The notes under the pieces were generated by a model. That model was given only the letters and a program-made list of their open reading frames with translations. It did no database searches and was not told the DNA's origin. A stretch of 64,000 nt of DNA from a virus (Duplodnaviria; Caudoviricetes). The position numbers and the translations under genes are program-made. Each line of letters opens with the position of its first letter. Positions within the stretch are counted from its first letter, which is position 1. Below, one piece after another: positions 1 through 13,098 of the stretch. Location of the stretch: positions 64,001 to 128,000 of the IMG/VR virus record IMGVR_UViG_3300028591_000072; one strand, given 5' to 3'.

Positions 1-165
1 ATAATAACAGAAAATGAAATTGGAGAAGAAAATATAAAAAATTTTAATCCGGAAAATTTTATTAAATATACTAAAGAAATTCGAGAAAAAAGAAGAAAAG
101 AATTAAGGAAGATTAGAAAAAACAAAAAAAGTGAAAAAAATAATAATAACAGAAAATCAATTTAA
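1..165 (+). CDS. 3' end of a gene truncated by the window edge (hypothetical)
   Basis: Frame 1 is open from base 1 (IITENEIGEENIK...) to TAA at 163-165. Confidence 0.5.
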   Translation: MITENEIGEENIKNFNPENFIKYTKEIREKRRKELRKIRKNKKSEKNNNNRKSI

Positions 166-883
166 TATTTTAAAAGAAATATCTTTTAAAGAAATTTCGG
201 AAAGGTGTTCAGATATTAATACATCACCTTCAGATGCACAAATTAATGCTTCTAATTACAAGATGGGGCATTTTTACGTTAAAGGAATGCCAATATCAAT
301 AGAAAACCCAATCGGCTCAAGGAGAAAATATAAAGACGAAAACGGAAACGATGGGTTTGTTATAATGAAGAATCATTACGGATATTTTACAAATACGACC
401 GGAAACGGGAAAGACGGAGATGCTGTTGACGTTTTTATAGGGCCGTACCCTGATGATTTTGAAATGGTATATGTTATTGACCAGAACAACAAAGACGGAG
501 AATTTGATGAGAGTAAGGTAATGATTGGATTCAAGTCAAGACAAGAGGCAAAAGAAGCCTATTTATCAAATTACAGTAAAAATTGGAGAGGATTTAGGGC
601 AATAACGGGAGTGTCCTTAAAACTTTTCAAAAAATGGCTTTACAGAGGAAACAAACAAAGAAAACCATTTGCTGAATATGTTGAAATACAAAAGAAAAAA
701 TTGGAAGAAGGAAAGCAAAAAATTGATGATTTTGATGAAAGGCTGAAAAAGGCTTATTTTATGGTTATTGACAGAAATATAACGATACAATCTGCTGCAC
801 TAGCCAATTGTACAAGCGACCCAAACGATTGCCTTAGATTAATACAAGAATTAAAAAAAATGTTTAAAAGCCAATTTACATAA
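131..883 (+). CDS. Inorganic pyrophosphatase-like domain protein with shared N-terminal leader; putative internal head protein
   Basis: ISIENPIGS, HYGY, DGDAVDVFIG and FDESKVMIGF motifs of the phage/polyvalent-protein PPase domain; leader MKKIIITENQFNILKE. Confidence 0.75.
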   Translation: MKKIIITENQFNILKEISFKEISERCSDINTSPSDAQINASNYKMGHFYVKGMPISIENPIGSRRKYKDENGNDGFVIMKNHYGYFTNTTGNGKDGDAVDVFIGPYPDDFEMVYVIDQNNKDGEFDESKVMIGFKSRQEAKEAYLSNYSKNWRGFRAITGVSLKLFKKWLYRGNKQRKPFAEYVEIQKKKLEEGKQKIDDFDERLKKAYFMVIDRNITIQSAALANCTSDPNDCLRLIQELKKMFKSQFT

Positions 884-887
884 AACA

Positions 888-919
888 ATGGGGTAGCGAA
901 TAATCGTTACCCCATTTTT
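888..919. terminator. Intrinsic terminator between convergent genes
   Basis: atggggtagcga-ataa-tcgttaccccat hairpin followed by a T-run. Confidence 0.75.
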
Positions 920-922
920 ATA

Positions 923-1568
923 GGTAATTATATAATTGTTGGCACAAGATTATAAATCTTCTCCATTAGCTTTGTTTATTTCATTATCATAATATATTGT
1001 GAGATAATATTTACCATAATATTCCGCTATTCTAAACCAAACAGTGTTATCCTCTATCATACCATCAGATACTATCTGATAAAAATACGCATCATAAAGC
1101 TTATTATGACAAGTCATTTCATATGAAATATCTTCGTTTAGTGATATTTTTTCACCTCCAATAAGAACATACTTTTTATTATTATAAAATTGGCTAAACC
1201 ATGTGTTAAATTCTAGAATAATACTTGATTCATCATGTGTCTTTGTTTCGGCTAAATAAATTCTATACACTTTTTTATGATTTGTACATACGAATAAGTG
1301 AACAGAAGCACCATTAAATGTACCCTTTAAAATTGGTAATTGTTTACCTTCCATTTCAAATTTTTCAGTCATTTCTTGGAATCCCTTATTCTTTAATTTC
1401 TGTATCATTTCAGATGCAGTCCCGTCAACAGGAATACCCATAAAGTTCACTTGTGCATCAACTGTTAATGATGCTACAGCTAAAAACAGTATAAATAAAA
1501 TTTTCTTCATAATTTATTATAATTTAAATAGTTATTATTCATTTTGTACCATCATGTACATAGTTCCA
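923..1568. mobile_element. Non-autonomous IS1595-derived cassette carrying one passenger gene
   Basis: Left IR ggtaattatataattgttggcacaa (923-947); right IR tttgtaccatcatgtacatagttcc (1543-1567); 8-bp direct repeat TTTTTATA at 915-922 and 1569-1576; IRs match the ends of the transposase-bearing element at 35340-37499. Confidence 0.8.
950..1510 (-). CDS. Secreted protein with signal peptide, Bacteroidota/Prevotella-like (cassette passenger)
   Basis: Signal peptide MKKILFILFLAVASLTVDAQ followed by FMGIPVDGT..KLKNKGF, a pattern I associate with Prevotella hypothetical proteins. Confidence 0.7.
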   Translation of the reverse strand: MKKILFILFLAVASLTVDAQVNFMGIPVDGTASEMIQKLKNKGFQEMTEKFEMEGKQLPILKGTFNGASVHLFVCTNHKKVYRIYLAETKTHDESSIILEFNTWFSQFYNNKKYVLIGGEKISLNEDISYEMTCHNKLYDAYFYQIVSDGMIEDNTVWFRIAEYYGKYYLTIYYDNEINKANGEDL

Positions 1569-1586
1569 TTTTTATATATAAATCAA

Positions 1587-2447
1587 TCAATAATTAAGAA
1601 CCAAAACCTCATCGGTTGTAGTTTTGTCCCTATCAAGTGCATGATATGAACAATTTGAATAAGTTTTGTCAAGATGCAAAACATTATATTTTTGTGCCCA
1701 ATCAATAAGTATTTTATTTTCCTTTCCTTTGTTGTAAAAAACGTTTGAAAGCGCAAACTTTATTCCTTTTTCGTTTATTTTATCCAAAAGTTCATACAGT
1801 TTGTTTTCCATCGTTTCGTTCCAACCGTCTTGTTCGTTATACGTTGCGCAGGTGATTAAATATGGAGGGTCACAATAAACAAAATCGTTTTCATTTAGTT
1901 TTTCATCTTTAAGTTCAATAAAATTTTTATTTGTAAAAATAATATTTTTATCAATAATTGATTTATGGAAATTTATTAGGTTTTTTTCTAACGATTTGTT
2001 AAAGTAACTTCTATCTTTTCCAAATGGCATGTTGAATTTTCCGTAACGATTAAAGCGTATTTGGTGGTTGAAACTATAGCATATTAATACAAACAAATCC
2101 AATGGATTCTTGTTATCACATTCGTTATAATATTCCCTAAATTCATTATATCCGTCAGAATTGGTAATTGACAATGAGTATTTTTCTATAACTCCATTGA
2201 TATATGACAATATTTCTTCAATGGAATACTTTTTGAATTCATTATAAATGTCTATGACGTTTTTATTTATGTCATTAGCTATTATTCTGTTTCCAAACAC
2301 ATTTATTGCTATATCACACCCGCCACAAAACAAATCAATGAAATCACCTTCAACACTTTCAGGAAATACCGGTAGTAATTGTTTTATAAGTTTATACTTA
2401 CCACCGGTATAATTCATTGGTGATTTTATAATGTTATTATTTTCCAT
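1587..2447 (-). CDS. dam: D12-class N6-adenine DNA methyltransferase (Dam family)
   Basis: NYTGGK, DLFCGG, DFVYCDPPY and FALSN motifs. Confidence 0.9.
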   Translation of the reverse strand: MENNNIIKSPMNYTGGKYKLIKQLLPVFPESVEGDFIDLFCGGCDIAINVFGNRIIANDINKNVIDIYNEFKKYSIEEILSYINGVIEKYSLSITNSDGYNEFREYYNECDNKNPLDLFVLICYSFNHQIRFNRYGKFNMPFGKDRSYFNKSLEKNLINFHKSIIDKNIIFTNKNFIELKDEKLNENDFVYCDPPYLITCATYNEQDGWNETMENKLYELLDKINEKGIKFALSNVFYNKGKENKILIDWAQKYNVLHLDKTYSNCSYHALDRDKTTTDEVLVLNY

Positions 2448-2448
2448 A

Positions 2449-3567
2449 TTAAGCTACAGTCACACAATTTTCAGGGCAAGTTATTTTAAATACATATCCT
2501 TTTTCATAATCATTTTCAAGAAGCTTATCTGTGAGTTTATCTTCGATATTCTCTTGGATTGACCTTATAATAGGTCTGGCGCCGAAATCCTTTTCTTCTT
2601 GGATTTCGTTAAGAATATATTTGACAACATCGTCATCGTATTCCATTGAATAACCCATATTTTCAAGTCTGCTTTCAAGTTTGTTGATTTCAATCCTGAT
2701 AATAGAATTCAAATCGTCATCATTCAATGTGTTGAAATAAATCACATCATTGATACGGTTAAGAAATTCAGGTGGAAATCTATTTTTCAATTGCTTCAGC
2801 AATATTCTCTTTGTATTTTCTTCTTCATTATTAGAAAATCCAATACCGTGGCCAAACTCGCTTGCAGCCTTAGCTCCAACATTTGAAGTAAATACAACAA
2901 TTACATTCTTAAAATCAACACGTTGGCCAGAGTTGTCTGTTAAGAATCCCTCGTCAAGCACTTGCAAGAAAATATTATACACCTCAGGGTCAGCTTTTTC
3001 AATTTCATCAAGCAAAAGAACACAGTGTTTCTTATTTTTGATTGTTTCAGTCAATTGGCCACCCTCTTCATATCCAACATAACCAGGATTTGAGCCAATG
3101 AGCTTATTGACTGAAACCTTATCTGAATATTCAGACATATCAAATCTCACAAGGGCCTTTTCATCACCAAACAACTCCTTAGCAAGTTTCTTTGCTAATA
3201 AAGTATTATGGCTTAATATTCCGTTTGTATAATATCTATGGTTTGAATTTTCACAAAGTTCTAAATCAAACATGTTTTCATACTCATTTGTACAAACAAC
3301 ATCCACAATTTTTTCTTCTCCGTTTTCAGTAATAATTGAATCACCAATATTAAGTTCTTTAGCAAAGACCTCATCCATGCTTGCGCTAAATAAAATATGG
3401 TCATCGGCGCATTCAATTAAATGATTTGTTGTTTTAATTATATATTTCAAATATGGAATTGTTTCATTAACAGTTTTTATATCAACAAATCCATTGTCCG
3501 TTAAAACCTCAAAACCACTAACATTAATCGTGTTTGTAAACTTTCTTTCAATATTATCAGATTTCAT
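2449..3567 (-). CDS. clpB: C-intein (121 aa) fused to the C-terminal half of a ClpB/ClpC-like ATPase
   Basis: YYTNGILSHN|TLLAKKLA junction; then RFDMSEY, GSNPGYVGYEEGG, LLDEIEKA and FGARPI of AAA+ domain 2. Confidence 0.9.
   Translation of the reverse strand: MKSDNIERKFTNTINVSGFEVLTDNGFVDIKTVNETIPYLKYIIKTTNHLIECADDHILFSASMDEVFAKELNIGDSIITENGEEKIVDVVCTNEYENMFDLELCENSNHRYYTNGILSHNTLLAKKLAKELFGDEKALVRFDMSEYSDKVSVNKLIGSNPGYVGYEEGGQLTETIKNKKHCVLLLDEIEKADPEVYNIFLQVLDEGFLTDNSGQRVDFKNVIVVFTSNVGAKAASEFGHGIGFSNNEEENTKRILLKQLKNRFPPEFLNRINDVIYFNTLNDDDLNSIIRIEINKLESRLENMGYSMEYDDDVVKYILNEIQEEKDFGARPIIRSIQENIEDKLTDKLLENDYEKGYVFKITCPENCVTVA
3205..3567 (-). other. Split intein, C-fragment (IntC, 121 aa)
   Basis: Block B-like ECADDH, block F MFDLEL, terminal SHN followed by Thr+1. 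Confidence 0.9.
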
Positions 3568-4708
3568 TGTTAAATAAAAATTTAATTAAGTTTTTTATTG
3601 TATTTTCTTTATTATTCCTATAATCATTTTCCCATATTTGCAACACTTCAAACCCATTTTCTTCTGCGACTTTTTTCTTTTTCTCATCAAACTCCCATAA
3701 TTCTTTACAAGTTTTATCTTTTTTAAATGGGTTTGGCATTTCATTTTCATTGAAAATCATAGGATTACCATGATATATATCTCCTTGAAACTCTATTATT
3801 TTTCTACGATTTAAATCTGTAAAATCATATATATAATTCACATTATTGTATCGTATACTATATTCATGATTTTTTTTACCATAAAACACATAATCACTAT
3901 CTTCTTTTTTATAATATTTTAAAATTTCATCAAATAAAGATTGTGATACTTCCGAATAACCAACATGTAAATTTCCTGATTTATGTAAAGTTTCTTGCCA
4001 TTTAAGTTGTCTTTCTTCCCATTTTTTTAAACCATCTTCTATTCCATATTTTTTAATACACTTTTCTTTTGAAAAAAATATTTGTTTTTTTGAGACAATT
4101 TCTTTAGCTTCTTCAATTGTACAACCACTAACATCAATCCAATACTCAGGGCATCTCCAACTTCTTTTTCTTACTTTTTCTTTATTTTCATTTGAATATT
4201 TTGAATATTCAGATTGAATTTTTTTTATGTTATCAATTGCTTCTTCTTTGGTATATCCACGACTAGTCCAATATTCCTCACAAAACCTACTTTTTTTCCT
4301 AAAAAAAGCATCTGCAAATTCTTTACCAACTTTTTTTTCAATAATTTCTTTACTGCATACTCCCCTATTTTTAACAAGCAAACTATTTTTTTGCTGTATT
4401 TCTGATATTTTTAATAATGATTCTTCTTCAGTAAAACCTTTATTAACCCAATATTCAACACATAATTTAGAACTCTTTTTCTTATTTTTTTTGAAATTAT
4501 CAACAAATTCCTTTCCGAAAATTGATTCCATTCTTACTTTATATGACATATTTTCGTGTGCTAAACAATTTTCGTTTGTACAAGTGGTTAATCTATATCT
4601 ATTATTACATTTTAACATTTGTTTATACCCTATTTCACATCCACAAATAGTACATTTTGGAGGATTACCTTCAGAAACAACTTTATTATTAATTAAAAAC
4701 TTATTCAT
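3557..4708 (-). CDS. Free-standing Vsr/DUF559-like (PD-(D/E)xK) homing endonuclease between the split-intein halves
   Basis: Repeats of CxEYW..G.T.EE(A/S); C-terminal YDF..IIEFQGDIYHGNP..DEKK..GFEVLQIWE. Confidence 0.8.
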   Translation of the reverse strand: MNKFLINNKVVSEGNPPKCTICGCEIGYKQMLKCNNRYRLTTCTNENCLAHENMSYKVRMESIFGKEFVDNFKKNKKKSSKLCVEYWVNKGFTEEESLLKISEIQQKNSLLVKNRGVCSKEIIEKKVGKEFADAFFRKKSRFCEEYWTSRGYTKEEAIDNIKKIQSEYSKYSNENKEKVRKRSWRCPEYWIDVSGCTIEEAKEIVSKKQIFFSKEKCIKKYGIEDGLKKWEERQLKWQETLHKSGNLHVGYSEVSQSLFDEILKYYKKEDSDYVFYGKKNHEYSIRYNNVNYIYDFTDLNRRKIIEFQGDIYHGNPMIFNENEMPNPFKKDKTCKELWEFDEKKKKVAEENGFEVLQIWENDYRNNKENTIKNLIKFLFNNEI

Positions 4709-4724
4709 AAATCTACATTTTATA

Positions 4725-4733
4725 ATAAATAGT
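4725..4733 (-). promoter_or_regulatory. Late-promoter motif ACTATTTAT in the gap between the ClpB N-half and the endonuclease
   Basis: Exact copy of the motif found upstream of the structural genes. Confidence 0.7.
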
Positions 4734-4752
4734 TGCTTATTGGAAAAACGGG

Positions 4753-6681
4753 TTATTTTATCATTTTTATGAAATCATTTATAGTAACTTTCTGTATTTC
4801 ACCAGTTTTTTTATTTCTAATAGTTATAAAAGTATCACCCGTAACGCATTTCCCAGTACCTGTCTTACCAATAGCCATATAGCTGTACATACATCCGTTA
4901 TTACTAAGTCCAACACGATTACGCTTTAATGCCTTGCAAACAGTGTCAACTGCTTCGTCTTGCCCAATAACAGTTTCTTTAAGCCTATCATTAATTCCTG
5001 AAAGTTTTTTCTTATCATCTGAATTAAGATTACTTACCGGAATACCAGTTTTAACAGAAATAAGATTGAGAATGTCATCAATTGTTACAGGAATATGATT
5101 TTCTTCCCTATCTTTTTCATAAGCATCCTTTTCGTCATTGTATTCTTTTTTCATCGCAATGATTTCTTTTGAAATGCCATCGGCACTTTCATAATCCTTT
5201 TCATTCTTGGCCTCTTCTAATTTATCTTCAAATAAAGAAATCTTTGATTTTAGTTCTTTCAGTTTTACGGGCTCGTTTGAAGTCCCATTTAAAGAGCCAA
5301 TTTCGTCAAGAATATCAATTGCTGAGTCCGGAAGATTACGTTCAGAAATATACTTGTCAGCAAGTTTCACACAAGCATCAACTACACCATCTTCGTATTT
5401 AACTTTATGGAAATCCTCATAAGACGTTTTAATTCCATTCAAAATCATAATTGATTCATTAATACTTGGAGATTCAACGATGATTTTTTGAAAACGTCTT
5501 GCAAGGCTTGGGTCTTTATCGAATGTTTTTCTATATGAAGAAAAATCTGAAGTGCCAATTACTTGTATTTCGCCTGTTTCAAGACCACGAGCAAGCATTG
5601 ATGAAATTTCAAAATCATTCTTTCCCTTATCGGCTAAAATTGCACCAATATTATCCATGAAAAGAATATAATTCTTATATTTTTTTACCTCATCCATGAC
5701 ACCCTTTACACGTTCTTCAAACATACCTCTAAGAGTGGTACCAGCCATCATTGCAGTCATATCAAGCGAAACAACACGCTTATTTATTAAGAAATCAGGA
5801 ACATCACCGTTTACAATTTTATAGGCAATGTGTTCACAAATTGCAGTTTTTCCAACACCTTCTCCGCCAACAAGTATTGTGTTGTTTTTATTTTTTCTTC
5901 CAAGTATTCTTATGATTTGTGAAATTTCTTTTTCACGCCCAATAATTGGTTCCATTTTTCCGCTCTCAGCAAGAGTATTCAAATCAACGCAATATTCATC
6001 AATATAAGGTGTTTTTGAATTGCTGTTTTTCTTTTTTTGCTTTTGTATCATCATTTCAGGAAGTTCTTCAATACTTTCTTTTAACTTTTTCATTGCTTCT
6101 TCAGGTGTTTTTGCTTGAATTATTTTAATATTTCCTTGACCAATATCGGTAAGCCCATCAACCGACATAACACCGTCACCGTCAAAAGAAACCAAATTAT
6201 CTTCCAACTTATTTTTAAAAACACCGTATGTCAATCCTGCTTTGTTAAAAACTTTTCGTATTTTATTGTTTTCATCGTCATCGTTTAAAATTGCCAAAAA
6301 AACGTGTTCAGAAGTCACTTCATTATTTTCAAGTTCTTTTGAAATTTTTTCTGCACTTTTTATAATCTCAACGAACTTACTATCCAATGTTGCTTTTCTG
6401 TTAGTCTTAACAGCGCTCAATGCTTTGGATGACACAACCTGATAAAAAGAGTTATAGATGGCATTCATTGTCGAAGTCATCATACACATTTCAAGTCTTT
6501 TAAATAAGTTGTTATTCTTTTGTACCAATGAACCAAGCAAAAAATAATTCAAATCAACAGTCAACGTTGGCAATTCCTTTGACAAATCATTAACTATAAA
6601 ATTTAAAAGTTCATTAAGTTCATTTGACATTTCAATACCGTCAAATGAATTTTCAATGTAAGTATTTTCAATCTCTGACAT
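4753..6681 (-). CDS. clpB: N-terminal part of a ClpB/ClpC-like ATPase ending in a 31-aa N-intein
   Basis: Clp-N (VTSEHVFLAIL), GEGVGKT Walker A1, AGTTLRGMFEER, RNLPDSAIDILDE, then Walker A2 GKTGTGK|CVTGDT... Confidence 0.9.
   Translation of the reverse strand: MSEIENTYIENSFDGIEMSNELNELLNFIVNDLSKELPTLTVDLNYFLLGSLVQKNNNLFKRLEMCMMTSTMNAIYNSFYQVVSSKALSAVKTNRKATLDSKFVEIIKSAEKISKELENNEVTSEHVFLAILNDDDENNKIRKVFNKAGLTYGVFKNKLEDNLVSFDGDGVMSVDGLTDIGQGNIKIIQAKTPEEAMKKLKESIEELPEMMIQKQKKKNSNSKTPYIDEYCVDLNTLAESGKMEPIIGREKEISQIIRILGRKNKNNTILVGGEGVGKTAICEHIAYKIVNGDVPDFLINKRVVSLDMTAMMAGTTLRGMFEERVKGVMDEVKKYKNYILFMDNIGAILADKGKNDFEISSMLARGLETGEIQVIGTSDFSSYRKTFDKDPSLARRFQKIIVESPSINESIMILNGIKTSYEDFHKVKYEDGVVDACVKLADKYISERNLPDSAIDILDEIGSLNGTSNEPVKLKELKSKISLFEDKLEEAKNEKDYESADGISKEIIAMKKEYNDEKDAYEKDREENHIPVTIDDILNLISVKTGIPVSNLNSDDKKKLSGINDRLKETVIGQDEAVDTVCKALKRNRVGLSNNGCMYSYMAIGKTGTGKCVTGDTFITIRNKKTGEIQKVTINDFIKMIK
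4756..4848 (-). other. Split intein, short N-fragment (IntN, 31 aa)
   Basis: CVTGDTFITIRNKKTGEIQKVTINDFIKMIK* is intein block A, directly after the Walker A Lys. Confidence 0.85.
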
Positions 6682-6791
6682 AATTCAAAATTTCTTGTTG
6701 TTTGTGGATAAACATACAGAAATATTTTAAAAAAAACAAATATTTTGATTTTTGCGCTAAAATTGGTATATTATATAAAAATGTTTATTAT

Positions 6792-7517
6792 ATGATATTA
6801 AAGAAAATTTATGACGCAGAAGCAAAAACACAGAAGATTTGGTACGATTCATCCATGATATATTACACTGAAATGGTCGAGAATGAAACTGAAAATTGTG
6901 GTAATTTGTTTGTTGTTTTCAAGAACGGGCAAAAATATGTGTACAAGGATGTAAGATTTGAAGATTATGTTGTCTTTATAAATGGAGGAACTGATGTTTC
7001 TCAAGGAAAGACATTAAACAAGGTCATAAAAAACAAATATGACTATGAAAAAATCGGCGAAGCTGATATGGATGCTTTAAGGCTTGAATTTGAAAAAGAA
7101 AAAGAGGATGATTTTGATATCTTACACACATATTTTATATCTGGACATAGAAATATAACAGAGGAAGAGTTTGAAATAAACTACAAGCCATCAATAGAAT
7201 TTGCACTTTATGAAGACCAAAAAGCAAAATTTGTCGTTGGTGATTACTATGGTGTTGATATTATGGCACAAAATTATCTCGTTGATGTTCTTGGTGTTGA
7301 CCCAAATAGAATTACGGTTTATCATATGTTTGATTCACCAAGGAACAAAAACGAAAAGATAACGAAAACAAAAGGCGGTTTTACTTCAGATGAAGAAAGG
7401 GATGCCGCAATGACAAACGCTTCATCAAAGGATATTGCATTTGTTAGAGACAATACAAAAATATCAGGAACAGGCTCAAATATTTTAAGAAGATATTTAT
7501 TAAAAACTTTTAGTTAA
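6792..7517 (+). CDS. KTSC domain fused to a SLOG/YspA-like domain
   Basis: DSSMI..LFVVFKNGQKYVYKDV (KTSC); FISGHRN..GDYYGVDIMA..ERDAAM..IAFV (SLOG-like); start moved to ATG 6792. Confidence 0.6.
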   Translation: MILKKIYDAEAKTQKIWYDSSMIYYTEMVENETENCGNLFVVFKNGQKYVYKDVRFEDYVVFINGGTDVSQGKTLNKVIKNKYDYEKIGEADMDALRLEFEKEKEDDFDILHTYFISGHRNITEEEFEINYKPSIEFALYEDQKAKFVVGDYYGVDIMAQNYLVDVLGVDPNRITVYHMFDSPRNKNEKITKTKGGFTSDEERDAAMTNASSKDIAFVRDNTKISGTGSNILRRYLLKTFS

Positions 7518-7522
7518 TTTAT

Positions 7523-7531
7523 ACTATTTAT
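7523..7531 (+). promoter_or_regulatory. Late-promoter motif ACTATTTAT (representative of 18 exact intergenic copies)
   Basis: Also at 7923, 9650, 13714, 19136, 23053, 32349, 35800, 37870, 41641, 45956, 47819, 59342 (+) and 4725, 29327, 45283, 45906, 54130 (-). Confidence 0.8.
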
Positions 7532-7577
7532 GAATGAATAAAAGTAGAAAATAATAAACCAATAAAAAATATTTGAT

Positions 7578-7856
7578 ATGGAAACTTACAAAATAAATCA
7601 CGAATTAAACCAATATGATTACGCTGAAGGAATAGAATTCAATGGATTAATGCCTAAATTAATGGAAGCAGACGGAGTTGACACAACAGGAACAAGCGAC
7701 ACAAATGTTAAATTCTTCGGATTTAACGCAAAAGGAAGCGATTCATTAGAAGTTGTTGACATTGATGCATTGAATGAAAAGGAAAGCGGAAGTGAAAGCA
7801 ATGGCGGAAACGAAGACAATGGCGATGAAAATGGCGATGAAAATGGCGGTAAATAA
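7578..7856 (+). CDS. Short paralogue of the N-terminal domain of the next gene
   Basis: NHELNQY..EGIEF.GLMPK.M.A.G...GSDSLEVVDID shared with 7962..9575; 12-bp aatggcgatgaa repeats at the 3' end. Confidence 0.8.
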   Translation: METYKINHELNQYDYAEGIEFNGLMPKLMEADGVDTTGTSDTNVKFFGFNAKGSDSLEVVDIDALNEKESGSESNGGNEDNGDENGDENGGK

Positions 7857-7859
7857 TAT

Positions 7860-7885
7860 GGTAACTATATACATGATGGCACAAA
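7860..7885 (+). repeat. Solo IS1595-type terminal inverted repeat overlapping a terminator
   Basis: ggtaactatatacatgatggcacaaa, running into aaagcacac-ttgaaaag-gtgtgcttttttt. Confidence 0.75.
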
Positions 7886-7961
7886 GCACACTTGAAAAGG
7901 TGTGCTTTTTTTGCTTCCGTTAACTATTTATAAAAAAAATAAAATACTAAAAATCACGAAA

Positions 7962-9575
7962 ATGGATAACTATATTGTGAATCACGAACTAAACCAATAC
8001 GGCCAAATAGAAGGAATAGAATTCGATGGACTTATGCCAAAATTTATGGATGCCATTGGAGCAACAACAGGAAGTAGTGACAAATATAAGAAAATGTTTG
8101 AATTTTATCCAAACGGTTCAGATTCTTTAGAGGTCGTTGACATTGATAAAATAATGGAGAACGGCAATAGCAGTGATTCTGGTGATGATAGCGGTGAAGA
8201 AACCGTTATAGTAAAACCAGAACCAACTGAAAACACTGAAGAACAACAAGCAATAGAAAACGAGATTTCAAATGCGCTAACTAGTGAAGACGGAGGAACA
8301 AAAGCATATAGTGCTGTATATGATGAAGTTAATAACTTAACAATCCCATCAGATTCATTGCGTAGTGCAACTATAAGCGGAAATGTACAAAATGGGGCAA
8401 CAATTACAAACGAATCAACAGGAAAATACTTAACTTTAAATAACACAAGTGAAACTCCAACAGATGTAAATGTAATCACAAATGGCGGTGCTGTATATTT
8501 AAGAGGTGAATATGATGACATTTACTTGGAAGGAAATGGGCTTAAAGTTTCAAGTTCAATTTATCCAAATGTACACGGAACTGTTTCTGTTGCCGATACA
8601 GACCAACCAGTTGCATTAACACTTAATTTCGTTGGAGATGACTGTGGCGTAAATTATTTAGGTGAAAACGAACTTACAATAAGTGACGGTGTTGCTGATG
8701 TCCTTGGAAGCCCAACAATATATGCACCAAATTCAAGCGTAAAAATGGGAGGAAAATATGATGAAGTTACCGCAACTGTCAGTGAAAACACTCTCATATT
8801 AAACAATGGTTTCCACGCAAACAAACTTACTGTTTTGAAAGGAAATGTTCTTCTTAATGGTGTTGACATAAATGACTTTGTTGAAGAATTAATTATGCAC
8901 GATGGCAGTGAGGTTATATATGCAGAATATCATGTATCACAAAGTAGCAATTCAAAACTTATGGGTTCATCACCAGCAAATGGAAAAATAATTCTTGACA
9001 CAGACATTGAATTAACTAAAGGACGTGCATATTCAGTACTTGCCGGCGGAAAAGAAGTCGTTGACCTTAACGGTCACACTTGGAGATGCGGAGATACAAG
9101 AACAGCTGATTCAAACCTTGGCTCATATTATCTCAGGGGTGGCAACATAAACGTAACATTGATGGATTCTGTTGGAGGCGGAGTTTTTGAAAATAACCAT
9201 GCAGATTACCTTGTTTTCTCAAATGGTGCTAACGTTGTTGTAAACGTAATGTCAGGAGAATATCGTGGATATACGCACACACTTTATGCATTGCAAGGAA
9301 CTATTAATGTTTATGGTGGAACTTTCAAACTCCTTAACGCTGACACAGCAGAAAGAGATGCTAATGGAAATCTCAAGTTCTTACTAAACTGTTATGATGC
9401 AAATTATACAGCAGGTACTGCAAAGATAAATGTATATGGCGGTAAGTTCTATGAATTCAACCCTGCTGTTACTTATGGAGAGCCGGGTGGCCCTGTAAGT
9501 TATGTAGCACAAGGCTATAAAGTTATCGAAAGCACAGAAAACGGAGTTAAGGTATACGAAGTTGTACCTGAATAA
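7962..9575 (+). CDS. Late protein, probable virion surface protein with beta-helix-like C-terminal region
   Basis: Late motif at 7923; N/G/T/V-rich with GxINVYGGxF repeats; start moved to ATG 7962. Confidence 0.55.
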   Translation: MDNYIVNHELNQYGQIEGIEFDGLMPKFMDAIGATTGSSDKYKKMFEFYPNGSDSLEVVDIDKIMENGNSSDSGDDSGEETVIVKPEPTENTEEQQAIENEISNALTSEDGGTKAYSAVYDEVNNLTIPSDSLRSATISGNVQNGATITNESTGKYLTLNNTSETPTDVNVITNGGAVYLRGEYDDIYLEGNGLKVSSSIYPNVHGTVSVADTDQPVALTLNFVGDDCGVNYLGENELTISDGVADVLGSPTIYAPNSSVKMGGKYDEVTATVSENTLILNNGFHANKLTVLKGNVLLNGVDINDFVEELIMHDGSEVIYAEYHVSQSSNSKLMGSSPANGKIILDTDIELTKGRAYSVLAGGKEVVDLNGHTWRCGDTRTADSNLGSYYLRGGNINVTLMDSVGGGVFENNHADYLVFSNGANVVVNVMSGEYRGYTHTLYALQGTINVYGGTFKLLNADTAERDANGNLKFLLNCYDANYTAGTAKINVYGGKFYEFNPAVTYGEPGGPVSYVAQGYKVIESTENGVKVYEVVPE

Positions 9576-9607
9576 TGTTGTTTCATTTAAAAGATTTTTT
9601 ATTTTAG

Positions 9608-9636
9608 AAGTCAGTCAGAAATGGCTGACTTTTTTT
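9608..9636 (+). terminator. Terminator of the repeated AAGTCAG...CTGACTT family
   Basis: aagtcagtc-agaaat-ggctgactt plus T-run. Confidence 0.75.
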
Positions 9637-9678
9637 ATTAATTCATTAAACTATTTATAAATGATAATTTGTCTATAA

Positions 9679-9942
9679 ATGAAAACAATATATATAACAA
9701 AAGAACAAATAGATAAAATAAAAGACTTTGAATTATTGTCAGAAAACAAAGTTCCATCGGCACAAGACCAAGTTAAAAACAAGGTGAATGCAGGTGTTAT
9801 GGATGCTGTTACGGCATGTGGAACTATGGAAGAAGGAGCTGAGCCTGAATCAAAAACATACGAGTTAGGTAAAGAAAAAAACGGTGATTATTATCACATA
9901 AACGAGGAAGAAATTAATTTTTTACTTAAAACTCTGTTTTAA
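9679..9942 (+). CDS. Small late protein with shared leader
   Basis: MKTIYITKEQ...LLSE; late motif at 9650. Confidence 0.65.
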   Translation: MKTIYITKEQIDKIKDFELLSENKVPSAQDQVKNKVNAGVMDAVTACGTMEEGAEPESKTYELGKEKNGDYYHINEEEINFLLKTLF

Positions 9943-10025
9943 ACAAAAAATATTCACCAAAAAGACATTCTTAGTTTTTATTAAAAAAATTACACTTAAA
10001 GAAGAACTATTACAAGGAATTAAAA

Positions 10026-11357
10026 ATGAACAAAAAAGAATACAGCATATTTATAAAAGCATCAAAAAGCATTCTTGATTTTATGGAAAAAAACGGAGAA
10101 CAAGTATCACCGTTCCCAAAAATAACATTAAACAATTCAGAACAAGATGGTATTTTTATAAAAACAGGATATTATTCACCATCCGAAAATGAAGTTGTAA
10201 TTTTTGTTAATAATAGAAATATAAAAGACTGCCTTAGAAGTGTTTCACATGAATTTATACATCATATACAAAACATAAGAGGAACAAAATTAAATTTTTC
10301 ATCAGAAGATAATGTAAAAGACAATAAAGACCTAGAAAAAATAGAAGCTGAAGCATATCTAAAAGGAAACATATATTTTAGGAAATGGACTGAATATATG
10401 AAAAAAAAGTATGAACCATCACTTTTAAAAGAATCAAAAACAATATTGAATGATGAAGGCGAAGTTGTTCCAGATAATTGTACTTGTGGAGGAAAAATTG
10501 GAACTTACATTTGTGGCGAACCAATTTACAAATGCACTAAATGCGGTAAATATTATGGAACTGTGAAGTTTGGATTGGATGAATCAAAAGTGTTTGATGA
10601 AACAAACCCTGAAGATGTTGATTTATCATCATTCAACATTAAAAGAGAGCTTAACCCAAAATTTTGGAAGAACAATTTGCTTGATTCAAGAATTAGATTA
10701 AAACTTCTTGATATCGCTGAAGATTTCATTGATTTCTTAGGTGTTGATTGGGTTAAGCCTGACGATATTATTATGACGGGTTCATTAGCCAATTTTAATT
10801 GGAACAAAAAATACTCAGATATAGATTTACACGTTTTGATGGATTTTTCAAAAGTTGATAAAAGAACTGATTTTGTTAAAAAATATTTTGATTCATTAAA
10901 AAACCAATGGAATGAAGAACACGGTGATTTGAAGATTTTCGGGTTTCCCGTTGAGGTATATGTACAAGACACAAACGAAGAACACGCTTCAAGTGGCGTT
11001 TATTCATTGGATAAAAACGAGTGGCTAACGGAGCCAAAGAGAGAAAAGTTAGCAAATGCAAAAGTAAACAAATCGCTTATACGTTCAAAGGTTGCAAAAT
11101 ACATTGATTATATTGATGAATTATATAACGAATACAAAGAAAAGTCCAATGATGAATATAAAATAGAAAAAATATCAAAGGCAGCAAATAAATTATGGGA
11201 TGCAATAAAGAACGAAAGAAAGAGTGAACTTAACAACGGAAAATCAGAAATATCAAATGGAAATATAGTCTTCAAATGTTTACGAAGATTAAATTATCTT
11301 GATAAGTTATACAACTTAAAAACGCAAACATATGATAATTTGAATAGTTTGCCTTAA
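10026..11357 (+). CDS. Multidomain protein: HExxH metallopeptidase-like, Zn ribbon, Pol-beta-superfamily nucleotidyltransferase
   Basis: SHEFIHH..EAEAY; CTCGG..CTKCG; TGSLAN..SDIDLH..VEVYVQD. Confidence 0.75.
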   Translation: MNKKEYSIFIKASKSILDFMEKNGEQVSPFPKITLNNSEQDGIFIKTGYYSPSENEVVIFVNNRNIKDCLRSVSHEFIHHIQNIRGTKLNFSSEDNVKDNKDLEKIEAEAYLKGNIYFRKWTEYMKKKYEPSLLKESKTILNDEGEVVPDNCTCGGKIGTYICGEPIYKCTKCGKYYGTVKFGLDESKVFDETNPEDVDLSSFNIKRELNPKFWKNNLLDSRIRLKLLDIAEDFIDFLGVDWVKPDDIIMTGSLANFNWNKKYSDIDLHVLMDFSKVDKRTDFVKKYFDSLKNQWNEEHGDLKIFGFPVEVYVQDTNEEHASSGVYSLDKNEWLTEPKREKLANAKVNKSLIRSKVAKYIDYIDELYNEYKEKSNDEYKIEKISKAANKLWDAIKNERKSELNNGKSEISNGNIVFKCLRRLNYLDKLYNLKTQTYDNLNSLP

Positions 11358-11424
11358 TTTTTTTTATTTTAATTGCTATTTATATGAAAAAAAGGAAAAT
11401 AATTCGATAAAAACAAAATAAGAT

Positions 11425-13098
11425 ATGTCAAGTTTTGAAGAAACTCTTGCTAGGATGAAAGGTCTTTATACCTATGGAAAAGAATTAAATGAAGGTAATG
11501 ACCTTAAAACACATACGTTAGAATACCATGCAATTGCAGCAGATGGCAAAAGCTATGGAATCATAAAAGAATGTAACAAATACTATATTAAATCAGCTCC
11601 TAAAGAAAAAGAAATGGTCGCTGAATCTTATGAATATCTTGGTGGATTTTGCAATAAGAAAAATTATGAATATAGCAGTTACGCAAACGCATTAAAGAAC
11701 TTTGAATTAAAAATGGCTTCAATTAACGAAGCTTGTGAAGGCAATGTCAACATTTCTACTTTAGACCCATTCAAAAAAGAAGAATTCTTGGTTGAATGTA
11801 CTGATAGAATGAAAAACGAAATTGCACGTCAAAGGCAAATTATGTACAACGCATCAATGATTATGAATGAAGCAAATGAAATTGGTGCTTCAAATAATGA
11901 CAACGTTGTTAAATATAACGGTACAAATCCTGAAACACCAAAGAAAAATGGTAATTCAATCAATGATGGCACTGATGCAAAAGTAGTTGACCAAGATAAA
12001 GTTAAAGGATTTAGCGGAAATAATCCGCACGAAAAGAAGACAAGTGGCCCCTACACTGAAAACCCATCAAAGGTAAATGAAGGTGCTTGCTGTGGAAAAT
12101 GTGGTAAAAACCCATGTGAATGCCAAAACTGCAACGAAGAAGCAGGCGACATTAGCGATGAACCATTAATGCCTAACACAAGAAATTGGGCAGGCCCAAA
12201 AATGGGTGCAAGTGAGCCAGACAAAATAGGTTGGGACATGGATGGACAAGAAAAAGTAAATGAAGAAACCAAAGAATGGGATGAAGGTTTACCGGGTTCA
12301 GCAGGTATTGGTGAGCCAGATACAGACCACAACAATGACCCATTTAATAAATCAATAAACGAGGGTGAAGAAGATTTTGATAACGAAGATAGCGAAAATC
12401 CTGAAGCAGACGATGATTCATTTGATTTAGGTGGAGACGAATTTGGTGACGAAACTGAAGAGTTTGGAGATGACGAACTTGGTGACGAAACTGAAGAGTT
12501 TGGAGATAACGAACTTGGTGACGAAACAGGCGAATTTGACGATGAAGAATTAACTGACGAACCTTCAGAAGATGAAGACCTAAGAAGTGAAATCGAATCA
12601 TTAAAGGCTGAAATTGAATCACTAAAAGCACAAATTAACGGAGAAGACACAGATAGTTTTGATAACACTGAAGATGAAGAAGATTTTAACAATGATTATG
12701 AATTTAGTGGAGAAGACGGAGAAGATTTTTCAACAGAAGGTGAAGTTGATGAATGCGGAGATTTCCAACAAAGTATGATGGAAGGAAAAAGAGCAAAAAT
12801 GGATAGTATAGTTGAATCTGTCGTTAAATCAATATTGAAAGAAGACGAACTCCACGTGTTTGGAAAGCACCCTGGCTACAGAAAGAAACCTATGGAACTT
12901 CCAACAACAGGTGAAGACCAAAACCAATGGGGCAGAGATTGGAATGATGAAAGTGTACACAGTGAAGAACCATTTGGAAAACAAATCGGTAATGGTGACC
13001 CATTTACACAATTGGTAAATGCAGTTACAAAAGATGTTATGTACCAATTAAAGAAAGGTATTCCGATTGAAGGCGCAAATAAAAAAAAAGTGGACTGA
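11425..13098 (+). CDS. Acidic head-core/scaffold-like protein; probably extended by a -1 frameshift
   Basis: GCTATTTAT upstream; many (I/L/V)NE sites; acidic repeats; ends at an A9 slippery run. Confidence 0.65.
   Translation: MSSFEETLARMKGLYTYGKELNEGNDLKTHTLEYHAIAADGKSYGIIKECNKYYIKSAPKEKEMVAESYEYLGGFCNKKNYEYSSYANALKNFELKMASINEACEGNVNISTLDPFKKEEFLVECTDRMKNEIARQRQIMYNASMIMNEANEIGASNNDNVVKYNGTNPETPKKNGNSINDGTDAKVVDQDKVKGFSGNNPHEKKTSGPYTENPSKVNEGACCGKCGKNPCECQNCNEEAGDISDEPLMPNTRNWAGPKMGASEPDKIGWDMDGQEKVNEETKEWDEGLPGSAGIGEPDTDHNNDPFNKSINEGEEDFDNEDSENPEADDDSFDLGGDEFGDETEEFGDDELGDETEEFGDNELGDETGEFDDEELTDEPSEDEDLRSEIESLKAEIESLKAQINGEDTDSFDNTEDEEDFNNDYEFSGEDGEDFSTEGEVDECGDFQQSMMEGKRAKMDSIVESVVKSILKEDELHVFGKHPGYRKKPMELPTTGEDQNQWGRDWNDESVHSEEPFGKQIGNGDPFTQLVNAVTKDVMYQLKKGIPIEGANKKKVD
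12436..12549 (+). repeat. Tandem 36-bp coding repeat (GDETEEFGD(D/N)EL, about 3 copies)
   Basis: ggtgacgaaactgaagagtttggagat(g/a)acgaactt repeated. Confidence 0.85.

Follow-up and report, generated by a model that had tools for sequence, protein, structure and literature searches.

How can a phage obtain a functional protein unfoldase from a gene that is broken inside a Walker A motif? The question is raised by a 64,000-nucleotide stretch of viral DNA (Duplodnaviria; Caudoviricetes), which covers positions 64,001 to 128,000 of the 302,581-bp IMG/VR record IMGVR_UViG_3300028591_000072 and is here called the window, with positions numbered from its first letter. Window positions 2449-6681 consist of three adjacent minus-strand open reading frames (ORFs), all of which are intact in the ORF list. 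The outer two encode the halves of a Clp/Hsp100-type ATPase with two AAA+ modules (D1 and D2), and each half carries one piece of an intein at the break, namely an N-terminal piece (IntN) on the N-half and a C-terminal piece (IntC) on the C-half. The middle ORF encodes a predicted Vsr-like nuclease. Judged from sequence and predicted structure, the two Clp halves are very probably joined by functional trans-splicing. The parts of the locus, with the host segments named exteins and lengths given in amino acids (aa), are as follows.

4849..6681, minus strand: N-extein, 611 aa, with Clp_N, AAA+ D1, AAA lid, a short coiled-coil middle, and the start of D2 through the Walker A Lys (AIGKTGTGK); assigned from Pfam Clp_N, AAA, and AAA_lid_9, from PHROG 4871 (positions 55-510), and from 82% identity to the N-part of the uninterrupted homologue in contig L001
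4756..4848, minus strand: IntN, 31 aa (CVTGDTFITIRNKKTGEIQKVTINDFIKMIK), block A only, net charge +3; its stop codon is at 4753-4755
4709..4752, minus strand: spacer of 44 nt from the IntN stop to the nuclease start, including AACTATTTAT at 4725-4734, a candidate promoter
3557..4708, minus strand: free-standing homing-endonuclease-like gene, 383 aa, in a reading frame that differs from both Clp halves
3205..3567, minus strand: IntC of 121 aa (net charge -13), which contains block B (ECADDH), block F (NMFDLEL…NHRYYTNG), and block G (ILSHN)
2449..3204, minus strand: C-extein, 251 aa and stop, with what remains of D2, beginning at the Walker A Thr (TLLAKK…) and including the Walker B motif (LLLDEIEKA), TSNVG, a GIGF loop, and the D2-small domain; assigned from Pfam AAA_2 (profile 16-165) and ClpB_D2-small and from 94% identity to L001

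The N-half ORF (4753-6681) encodes 642 aa and ends in …CMYSYMAIGKTGTGK, followed by the 31 residues of IntN (a length counted by script) and the stop codon. The C-half ORF (2449-3567) encodes 372 aa, the first 121 of which end in …NHRYYTNGILSHN (YYTNGILSHN) and are followed by TLLAKKLAKELFGDE (TLLAKKLAKE). The stop codon of the nuclease gene and the ATG of the C-half overlap within ATGAAATCTGA. The Pfam AAA_2 match in the C-half begins at residue 121 and at profile position 16, which places the initial section of the domain, with Walker A, in the N-half. Likewise, PHROG 4871 ('ATP-dependent protease') is covered from 55 to 510 by the N-half and from 510 to 749 by the C-half. The predicted spliced product is a protein of 611 + 251 = 862 aa with an intact GKTGTGKT P-loop.

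The exact break point follows from relatives in which the gene is whole. A scan of viral contigs for related loci returned 70 loci, and in the eight closest contigs (L001-L008) the Clp gene is uninterrupted, with 48-82% identity in the N-part and 71-94% in the C-part. In these contigs the match to N-extein residue 611 runs straight on, in the next codon, to the match to C-extein residue 1. All 30 of 30 junction residues are identical in L001 and L003, and the junction DNA is identical at 74-76 of 90 positions. As far as sequence comparison can tell, arrangement and junction lie far beyond chance. The uninterrupted homologues fix the break point exactly, and the locus is of the kind that Dassa et al. 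(2009) termed a fractured gene. Moreover, the five-part layout of N-extein, IntN, nuclease, IntC, and C-extein recurs in the diverged phages L009 (a 393-kb contig) and L010. In L009, IntC is 63%, the nuclease 62%, and the exteins 49-71% identical to those of the window; intein and nuclease have thus diverged about as much as the exteins, so that no faster decay is seen in the inserted parts than in the host gene itself. Other assemblies also contain proteins with 98-99% identity to the IntC-Clp protein (P0001) and the nuclease (P0244), so the layout is not an assembly artefact.

Both pieces at the break can be recognized as parts of one intein. The best sequence matches of IntC in the PDB (phmmer) were CatC, from the consensus atypically split intein Cat (6dsl_B, E 1.1e-5, residues 13-120), and VidaL (6vgv, E 2.2e-5). 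An AlphaFold2 (AF2) model of IntC alone, based on a nine-sequence alignment, had a predicted local distance difference test score (pLDDT) of 90.2 and gave 39 Foldseek matches at E<=1e-3, with VidaL at the top (TM 0.78, root-mean-square deviation (rmsd) 1.2 Å), followed by Cat and gp41-1; all matches among those listed were inteins or intein-like HINT domains. The residue set of a class 1 intein is present, comprising Cys1, block-B His57, block-F Asp101, Ser119-His120-Asn121, and Thr+1, and it is invariant across alleles of four host genes. H57, D101, S119, H120, and N121 are at least 97% conserved in 120 IntC homologues that are 58-98% identical. The Cys stands directly after GKTGTGK, and Cys1 is common to all aligned IntN pieces and cis forms.

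IntN aligns with the IntN of split alleles in the D2 module of ClpC-like proteins (ClpD2), the helicase gp41, SbcC, and the terminase large subunit (TerL), and also with the N-terminal part of cis mini-inteins. In an alignment with the mini-inteins of P0134, P0132, and the TerL of phage MK-13, the split point falls in a variable loop after the block-A hairpin. P0134 and P0132 carry cis mini-inteins of 173 and 165 aa at the same Clp D2 site, and their variable linker lies exactly at the split position. The opposite net charges of the two pieces are usual for split inteins. With separate ORFs, a 31-aa IntN that holds block A only, and a 121-aa IntC that holds blocks B, F, and G, the intein is atypically split. 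PHROGs contains no family for IntC alone, and the Pfam Intein_splicing profile matched IntC only below threshold (21.4 versus 35.8 bits). Sequence comparison confirms the element as a fractured gene with a relative of the atypically split TerL inteins.

An earlier note on this DNA, made from the sequence alone, had described a fractured gene whose second Walker A motif is interrupted by an atypically split intein, with a Vsr-like endonuclease gene between the halves. Its coordinates, lengths, and motifs were all correct, including the joining of the exteins to 862 aa. The intein is borne out by the ORFs, the exact junction, the HINT fold of IntC, and the catalytic residues, and the fractured-gene layout by the three ORFs and the uninterrupted homologues in L001-L008. 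The claim about the middle gene agrees with its predicted fold, which resembles Vsr and I-Bth0305I at Z-scores of 10-11, as set out below.

The nuclease is composed of an N-terminal Cys-rich ribbon, three helical repeats of ~45 aa, and a C-terminal Vsr-type domain (residues ~250-383). Residues 1-250, which hold the ribbon (CxxC…CxNxxC) and the three repeats (EYWxxKGY/FxEEEAxxxIxxxQ), match no Pfam family and presumably form a modular DNA-binding region. The protein is matched by the unnamed family phrog_22677 (7e-22) and has 102 homologues, nearly all without a precomputed Pfam domain and two of them called Vsr by JGI. Its AF2 model, based on 39 sequences, had a pLDDT of 89.7. With the whole model, Foldseek returned weak E-values only (0.04-0.15). 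When the C-terminal domain was compared by VIA-align, the Vsr-DNA complex 1cw0 scored Z 11.3, the catalytic domain of I-Bth0305I (3r3p) Z 10.2 (rmsd 2.7 Å, 97 of 97 residues), 1vsr Z 10.0, and the DUF559 protein 3hrl Z 9.9; the Vsr-type scores were well above those of unrelated PD-(D/E)xK rows. Across 39 homologues there is no variation at E306 and H313 and hardly any at D295, D310, and D341. By their order, D295, E306, D310, H313, and D341 would fit the Vsr/EDxHD site and are candidate active-site residues; in I-Bth0305I the corresponding set includes D196, H213, and D222 (PMC3239194). The predicted fold thereby supports the middle gene as a Vsr-like, homing-endonuclease-like gene. Nucleases of the same family were also observed in contig L063 (positions 900-12000), where three fractured genes lie inside 12 kb with one such nuclease in each gap. 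The first of these genes is conventionally split (long IntN, short IntC), and it is followed by a gp41-type helicase and an SbcC-type ATPase gene, both atypically split at Walker A.

Which protein has been broken? The earlier note had called the host ClpB-like, and this part of its reading calls for correction. For ClpB, the NCBIfam model (TIGR03346) has a cut-off of 1232 bits and gave 361 + 267; the score for ClpA was nearly equal and likewise far below its cut-off. In the C-half, TSNVG (the D2 sensor-1 region) is followed by GHGIGFSNN, and the GIGF loop is kept in L001-L008. We take this position to be the ClpP-docking loop site of ClpC (VGF) and ClpA (IGL), a loop that is presumably missing from ClpB. 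Between the D1 lid and D2 there is a coiled coil of only ~50 aa, so that the middle domain is short. Furthermore, the phage encodes a ClpP of its own outside the window (G000:C1:258038-258571, Pfam CLP_protease, E 1e-68), ~190 kb from the unfoldase gene. Because of the GIGF loop, the short coiled coil, and the encoded ClpP, the protein would be a ClpC/ClpA-type partner of the phage ClpP, and on its sequence it is better called ClpC/ClpA-like than ClpB-like. The Walker B motif of D1, at window positions ~5550-5600 (ILFMDNIGAILAD), reads Asp-Asn rather than Asp-Glu, a feature kept in L001-L008; in more distant phage Clp homologues D1 Walker B is canonical (ILFIDE…). To judge from this motif, D1 may bind ATP without hydrolysis, and D2, the module that depends on splicing, is therefore probably the main hydrolytic motor.

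The intein belongs to a large family. A phmmer search with IntC against 1.84 billion representatives gave 961 matches, 498 of them at E<=1e-10. Among the best 150 of the 961, IntC stands at the extreme N-terminus in 116 (the split form), and 18 are apparently contiguous. Pfam domains on 101 of the best 150 were TerL (43), DnaB-type helicase (16), Clp AAA_2 (7), ABC_tran (2), and gp44 (1). Protein clusters that match the IntC region number 682, and all of the 120 listed have a Clp-type C-half (ClpC-like D2 or ClpX). In every case examined, the insertion lies between the Walker A Lys and the following Thr or Ser. The hosts of the family comprise TerL, the gp41 helicase, SbcC, ClpX, and D1 and D2 of ClpC-like proteins. 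Three sites are thus used in Clp proteins: D2 of ClpC-like proteins, as in the window gene, D1 of ClpC-like proteins (ClpD1; SHN-TAIVEGLA, where the hyphen marks the splice junction; P0135, P0143, P0202, and others), and ClpX. Where the intein end could be located, the +1 residue was Thr in 95 and Ser in 46 of 143 cluster representatives (141/143). Thr+1, which the earlier note had regarded as a possible novelty, is therefore ordinary for this family; the contrast is solely with the characterised TerL inteins and their Cys+1.

The ClpX site is represented by the Lak megaphages (locus L075:4388-6242, on a 553,716-bp contig). Here the N-half reads IGDTGVGK-C… to a stop codon, which is followed by a gap of 73 nt without a nuclease and then by IntC…SHN-TLLVKSIAKMLDVP; the N-half ORF requires TAG to be read as sense (2 recoded steps). 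The protein, which NCBI lists as WQJ51120.1, 'hypothetical protein', was found on 94 contigs. A split without a nuclease that occurs on 94 contigs means that the split state persists without the selfish gene.

An intein tree of 120 columns and 237 rows is poorly resolved and was used solely to count minimum host switches. The host label requires 45 changes on this tree, compared with a mean of 88 when labels are shuffled, and several switches are unavoidable for TerL, SbcC, ClpX, ClpD1, and ClpD2 even if only the well-supported branches are considered. These counts indicate that most alleles have stayed at one site by descent, while transfers from one P-loop site to another have happened repeatedly. 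The nearest neighbour of the window IntC is a ClpD2 intein, followed by ClpX, another ClpD2, and gp41.

Two kinds of relatives deserve mention for their architecture. P0133, P0140, P0148, P0186, and P0187 are IntC-Clp C-halves with an extra N-terminal extension of 270-370 aa. An interpretation of the P0133-type proteins as nuclease-IntC fusions was rejected, as BLASTP against the window nuclease shows no similarity (E 0.32); the extensions, of ~280 aa in proteins like P0133, could belong to another domain joined to IntC or could result from merged gene calls. In Salicola phage SCTP-2 (MF360958; L074:2992-3885), a piece annotated 'terminase large subunit' begins with an IntC that is 45% identical and ends in an apparent second IntN (…SLLY-CLDGETTVKLRDKESGE…) at the Walker B region. 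The TerL of this cultured jumbo phage therefore seems to be broken at least twice.

For the window locus, the following course of events is proposed. A P-loop-specific mini-intein related to those of TerL would have invaded a ClpC/ClpA-type gene between the D2 Walker A Lys and Thr codons, and a free-standing Vsr-like homing endonuclease gene would then have broken the mini-intein in the loop after block A. The N-half (611-aa extein with the basic 31-aa IntN) and the C-half (acidic 121-aa IntC with the 251-aa extein) would be translated separately, the latter probably from a transcript that starts at AACTATTTAT before the nuclease gene and by translational coupling to the nuclease. IntN would dock on a partly folded IntC and complete the HINT fold. 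Formation of the Cys1 thioester, attack by Thr+1, cyclisation of Asn121, and an O-to-N shift would subsequently deliver the 862-aa protein. The spliced unfoldase would be expected to work with the phage ClpP, and the nuclease may cut intein-less alleles in co-infecting relatives, thereby spreading the whole cassette.

The transcript start assumed for the C-half is suggested by a repeated motif. The 10-mer AACTATTTAT has 12 copies in the window where 0.73 would be expected (~16-fold), a number reached in 0 of 100 shuffles. Of 61 ORF-upstream regions, 15 contain its core CTATTTA, compared with an expectation of 0.9. Besides the copy at 4725-4734, which lies 17 nt before the nuclease ATG, the motif is located at 7922, 9649, 13713, 32348, 37869, 41640, 45283, 45906, 45955, 54130, and 59341. 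In the count of ORF-upstream regions of the window it was absent upstream of the N-half. Taken at a length of 17 nt, the spacer motif showed no enrichment (3 versus 2.2), and a scan of the locus for sigma-70 promoters and terminators did not rise above shuffles (31 versus 26.5). The 10-mer is thus a candidate phage promoter or other gene-start signal. Since it precedes the nuclease and is missing before the N-half, the nuclease and the translationally coupled C-half may have a promoter of their own.

Several points weigh against this picture. The splicing claim is drawn wholly from sequence and predicted structure. Within the intein, the block-B Thr position is occupied by Ala (ADDH), and VidaL also aligns an Ala there. 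The Asp-Asn of D1 Walker B makes the unfoldase somewhat atypical on its sequence. On the nuclease, Pfam DUF559 reaches 20.0 bits, just under the 20.6 cut-off, and MTES_1575 is borderline too. For AACTATTTAT, it is only enrichment and position that suggest a role as promoter. Part of this would suit a dead insertion, in which the intein does not splice and the Clp gene is a two-piece pseudogene or is being lost: besides the non-canonical D1 Walker B, the close relatives L001-L004 thrive with an uninterrupted gene. However, all three ORFs are intact, the catalytic intein residues are retained in this gene as well as among 120 homologues with identities as low as 58%, and the exteins are 82-94% identical to those of intact relatives, with all D2 motifs present. 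The layout also recurs in the diverged L009 and L010, and the Lak phages keep the split without a nuclease. We consider a dead insertion, although the strongest of the rival readings, distinctly unlikely.

The same intein pieces could in principle hold the halves together non-covalently, as a two-chain ATPase that never splices. Split intein pieces bind tightly, and the charges of +3 and -13 favour association, but the ~150 intein residues that would remain between the P-loop Lys and Thr are incompatible with nucleotide binding by D2. Moreover, a conserved Cys1, penultimate His, terminal Asn, and Thr/Ser+1 are expected for chemistry and not for binding alone, which makes this arrangement very unlikely. 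A third possibility is that the intervening stretch is a group I or group II intron, with the endonuclease gene inside it, that is taken out of the RNA. Such an intron would accord with the residence of Vsr-like endonucleases in group I introns (I-Bth0305I, PMC3239194) and with the frequency of such introns in gut jumbo phages (PMC12880540). When positions 2300-6900 were searched by Rfam cmscan with permissive filters, no intron family was found, and the sole match was a chance snoRNA (E 0.91). Furthermore, the boundaries are exactly of the intein type (Cys1, HN-T) and the flanks are homologous to a HINT domain, so that removal as RNA is scarcely conceivable. Trans-splicing of the two Clp halves is hence the reading that we prefer.

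If the halves are trans-spliced, what keeps the arrangement in place? Intein and Vsr-like nuclease could form a composite element that hops between the Walker A sites of unrelated P-loop NTPases, a proposal for and against which we see the balance as even. Alternatively, trans-splicing could have been co-opted as a control step, whereby the D2 P-loop, and with it the ClpC-ClpP protease, is active only when both halves are present. As the motif stands before the nuclease/C-half unit and not before the N-half, the halves could be made at different times. If this second proposal were true, the nuclease-less split of the Lak ClpX would reflect selection for a checkpoint and not mere tolerance. We hold the control step to be unlikely and the composite hopping element to be the more likely of the two.

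With respect to the neighbourhood, a gene for a D12-class N6-adenine DNA methyltransferase (window 1587-2447, minus strand) begins 1 nt past the stop codon of the Clp C-half, and a protein of the InPase family (PF18823) is encoded nearby (window 131-883, plus strand).

The locus extends inteins to the Clp/Hsp100 unfoldases, where they are found in ClpX and in D1 and D2 of ClpC-like proteins, and it reveals one intein lineage that is specialised on the invariant Walker A GK-T/S across at least six kinds of P-loop NTPase. The stages of gene breaking can be followed within one host gene, from the empty site over the cis mini-intein to the split with a nuclease and the split without one, and the nuclease-less Lak allele offers a natural test of why splits persist. 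For annotation, it is of relevance that such halves are deposited as 'hypothetical protein' or 'ClpX'. There is also a practical side. Natural inteins that are atypically split and whose IntN is short are sought as tools for protein semisynthesis, since chemical synthesis of so small a piece is feasible (PMC10189870), and few of them have been characterised. AceL-TerL originates from a cold lake and has its optimum at 8 °C (PMC11766414). The family described here provides hundreds of naturally occurring variants with Cys1/Thr(Ser)+1, whose habitat is the warm gut.

How does the element relate to what has been described before? A search of open-access papers found no report of a ClpA, ClpB, ClpC, or ClpX intein, a ClpP intein only, and none on Clp inteins of megaphages. 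A tblastn search with IntC and 60 extein residues against 50,697 GenBank phage records found no IntC-Clp join and TerL-hosted relatives only. A Clp ATPase as intein host thus appears to be unpublished, whereas the type of element is itself known. The suggestion in the earlier note that a Clp host may be new consequently stands as far as the searched literature is concerned, but the host is not rare, given the 682 clusters that match the IntC region; the Clp-hosted layout is common in metagenomes and breaks no rule.

Fractured genes and their Vsr-like endonucleases were defined by Dassa et al. (2009; PMC2677866), and half of the loci in that study carry a Vsr-like endonuclease. One terminase split intein in that study has its break 'at an unusual point' and a C-part of 122 residues from which motif N1 alone is missing; the window IntC likewise has 121 aa and blocks B, F, and G. 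The same terminase lineage yielded GOS-TerL, AceL-TerL, and their consensus Cat. Unlike the Dassa loci, the host here is a Clp/Hsp100 unfoldase and not one of their eight DNA-metabolism enzymes, and the insertion site is the second AAA+ Walker A; the word 'Clp' does not occur in that paper (PMC2677866).

The nuclease shares with I-Bth0305I (PMC3239194, 3R3P), which typifies the Vsr-like 'EDxHD' homing endonucleases, a C-terminal Vsr-type domain, a bipartite build whose N-terminal part would bind DNA, and an association with phage intervening sequences. It differs from I-Bth0305I in that no significant sequence similarity was detected, in having a Cys-rich ribbon and helical repeats instead of NUMOD motifs, and in being free-standing inside a split intein, whereas I-Bth0305I lies inside a group I intron. 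PolB16 OarG (PMC10189870) is likewise a natural atypically split intein and comes from a sheep gut metagenome. In contrast to the window intein, it is split 15/168 aa, has Ser1/Ser+1, a PolB host, and a dispensable block-B His, and belongs to a different family.

Likenesses are also found in terminases. The IntC of the cis-splicing TerL mini-intein of Ackermannviridae (for example Shigella phage MK-13, NC_049455) and that of the SCTP-2 TerL are 40-45% identical to the window IntC. The MK-13 intein is also inserted between the Walker A Lys and Thr (QSGK-C…SHN-TTVV) with Cys1/Thr+1, but it is contiguous (159 aa), lies in TerL, and lacks an endonuclease; the SCTP-2 TerL represents the atypically split form. 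GOS-TerL (37/115, Ser1/Cys+1), AceL-TerL (25/104, Cys1/Cys+1), and Cat (30/104) have been characterised (PMC11766414), and together with VidaL (6VGV), these inteins, including Cat (6DSL), are natural, atypically split, and of class 1, with an IntN of 25-37 aa and an IntC of 104-115 aa. They include the best sequence and fold matches of the window intein, and its 31-aa IntN falls within the range known from GOS-TerL and AceL-TerL. The window intein differs from the TerL inteins and VidaL in its Cys1/Thr+1 pair, where these have Cys+1 (and GOS-TerL Ser1), and in an identity of only 24-30%; its source is a gut phage, whereas the TerL inteins come from an Antarctic lake or the ocean. Given its Clp D2 host and its Thr+1, the intein is therefore a relative of the TerL inteins in another insertion site and not an allele of them.

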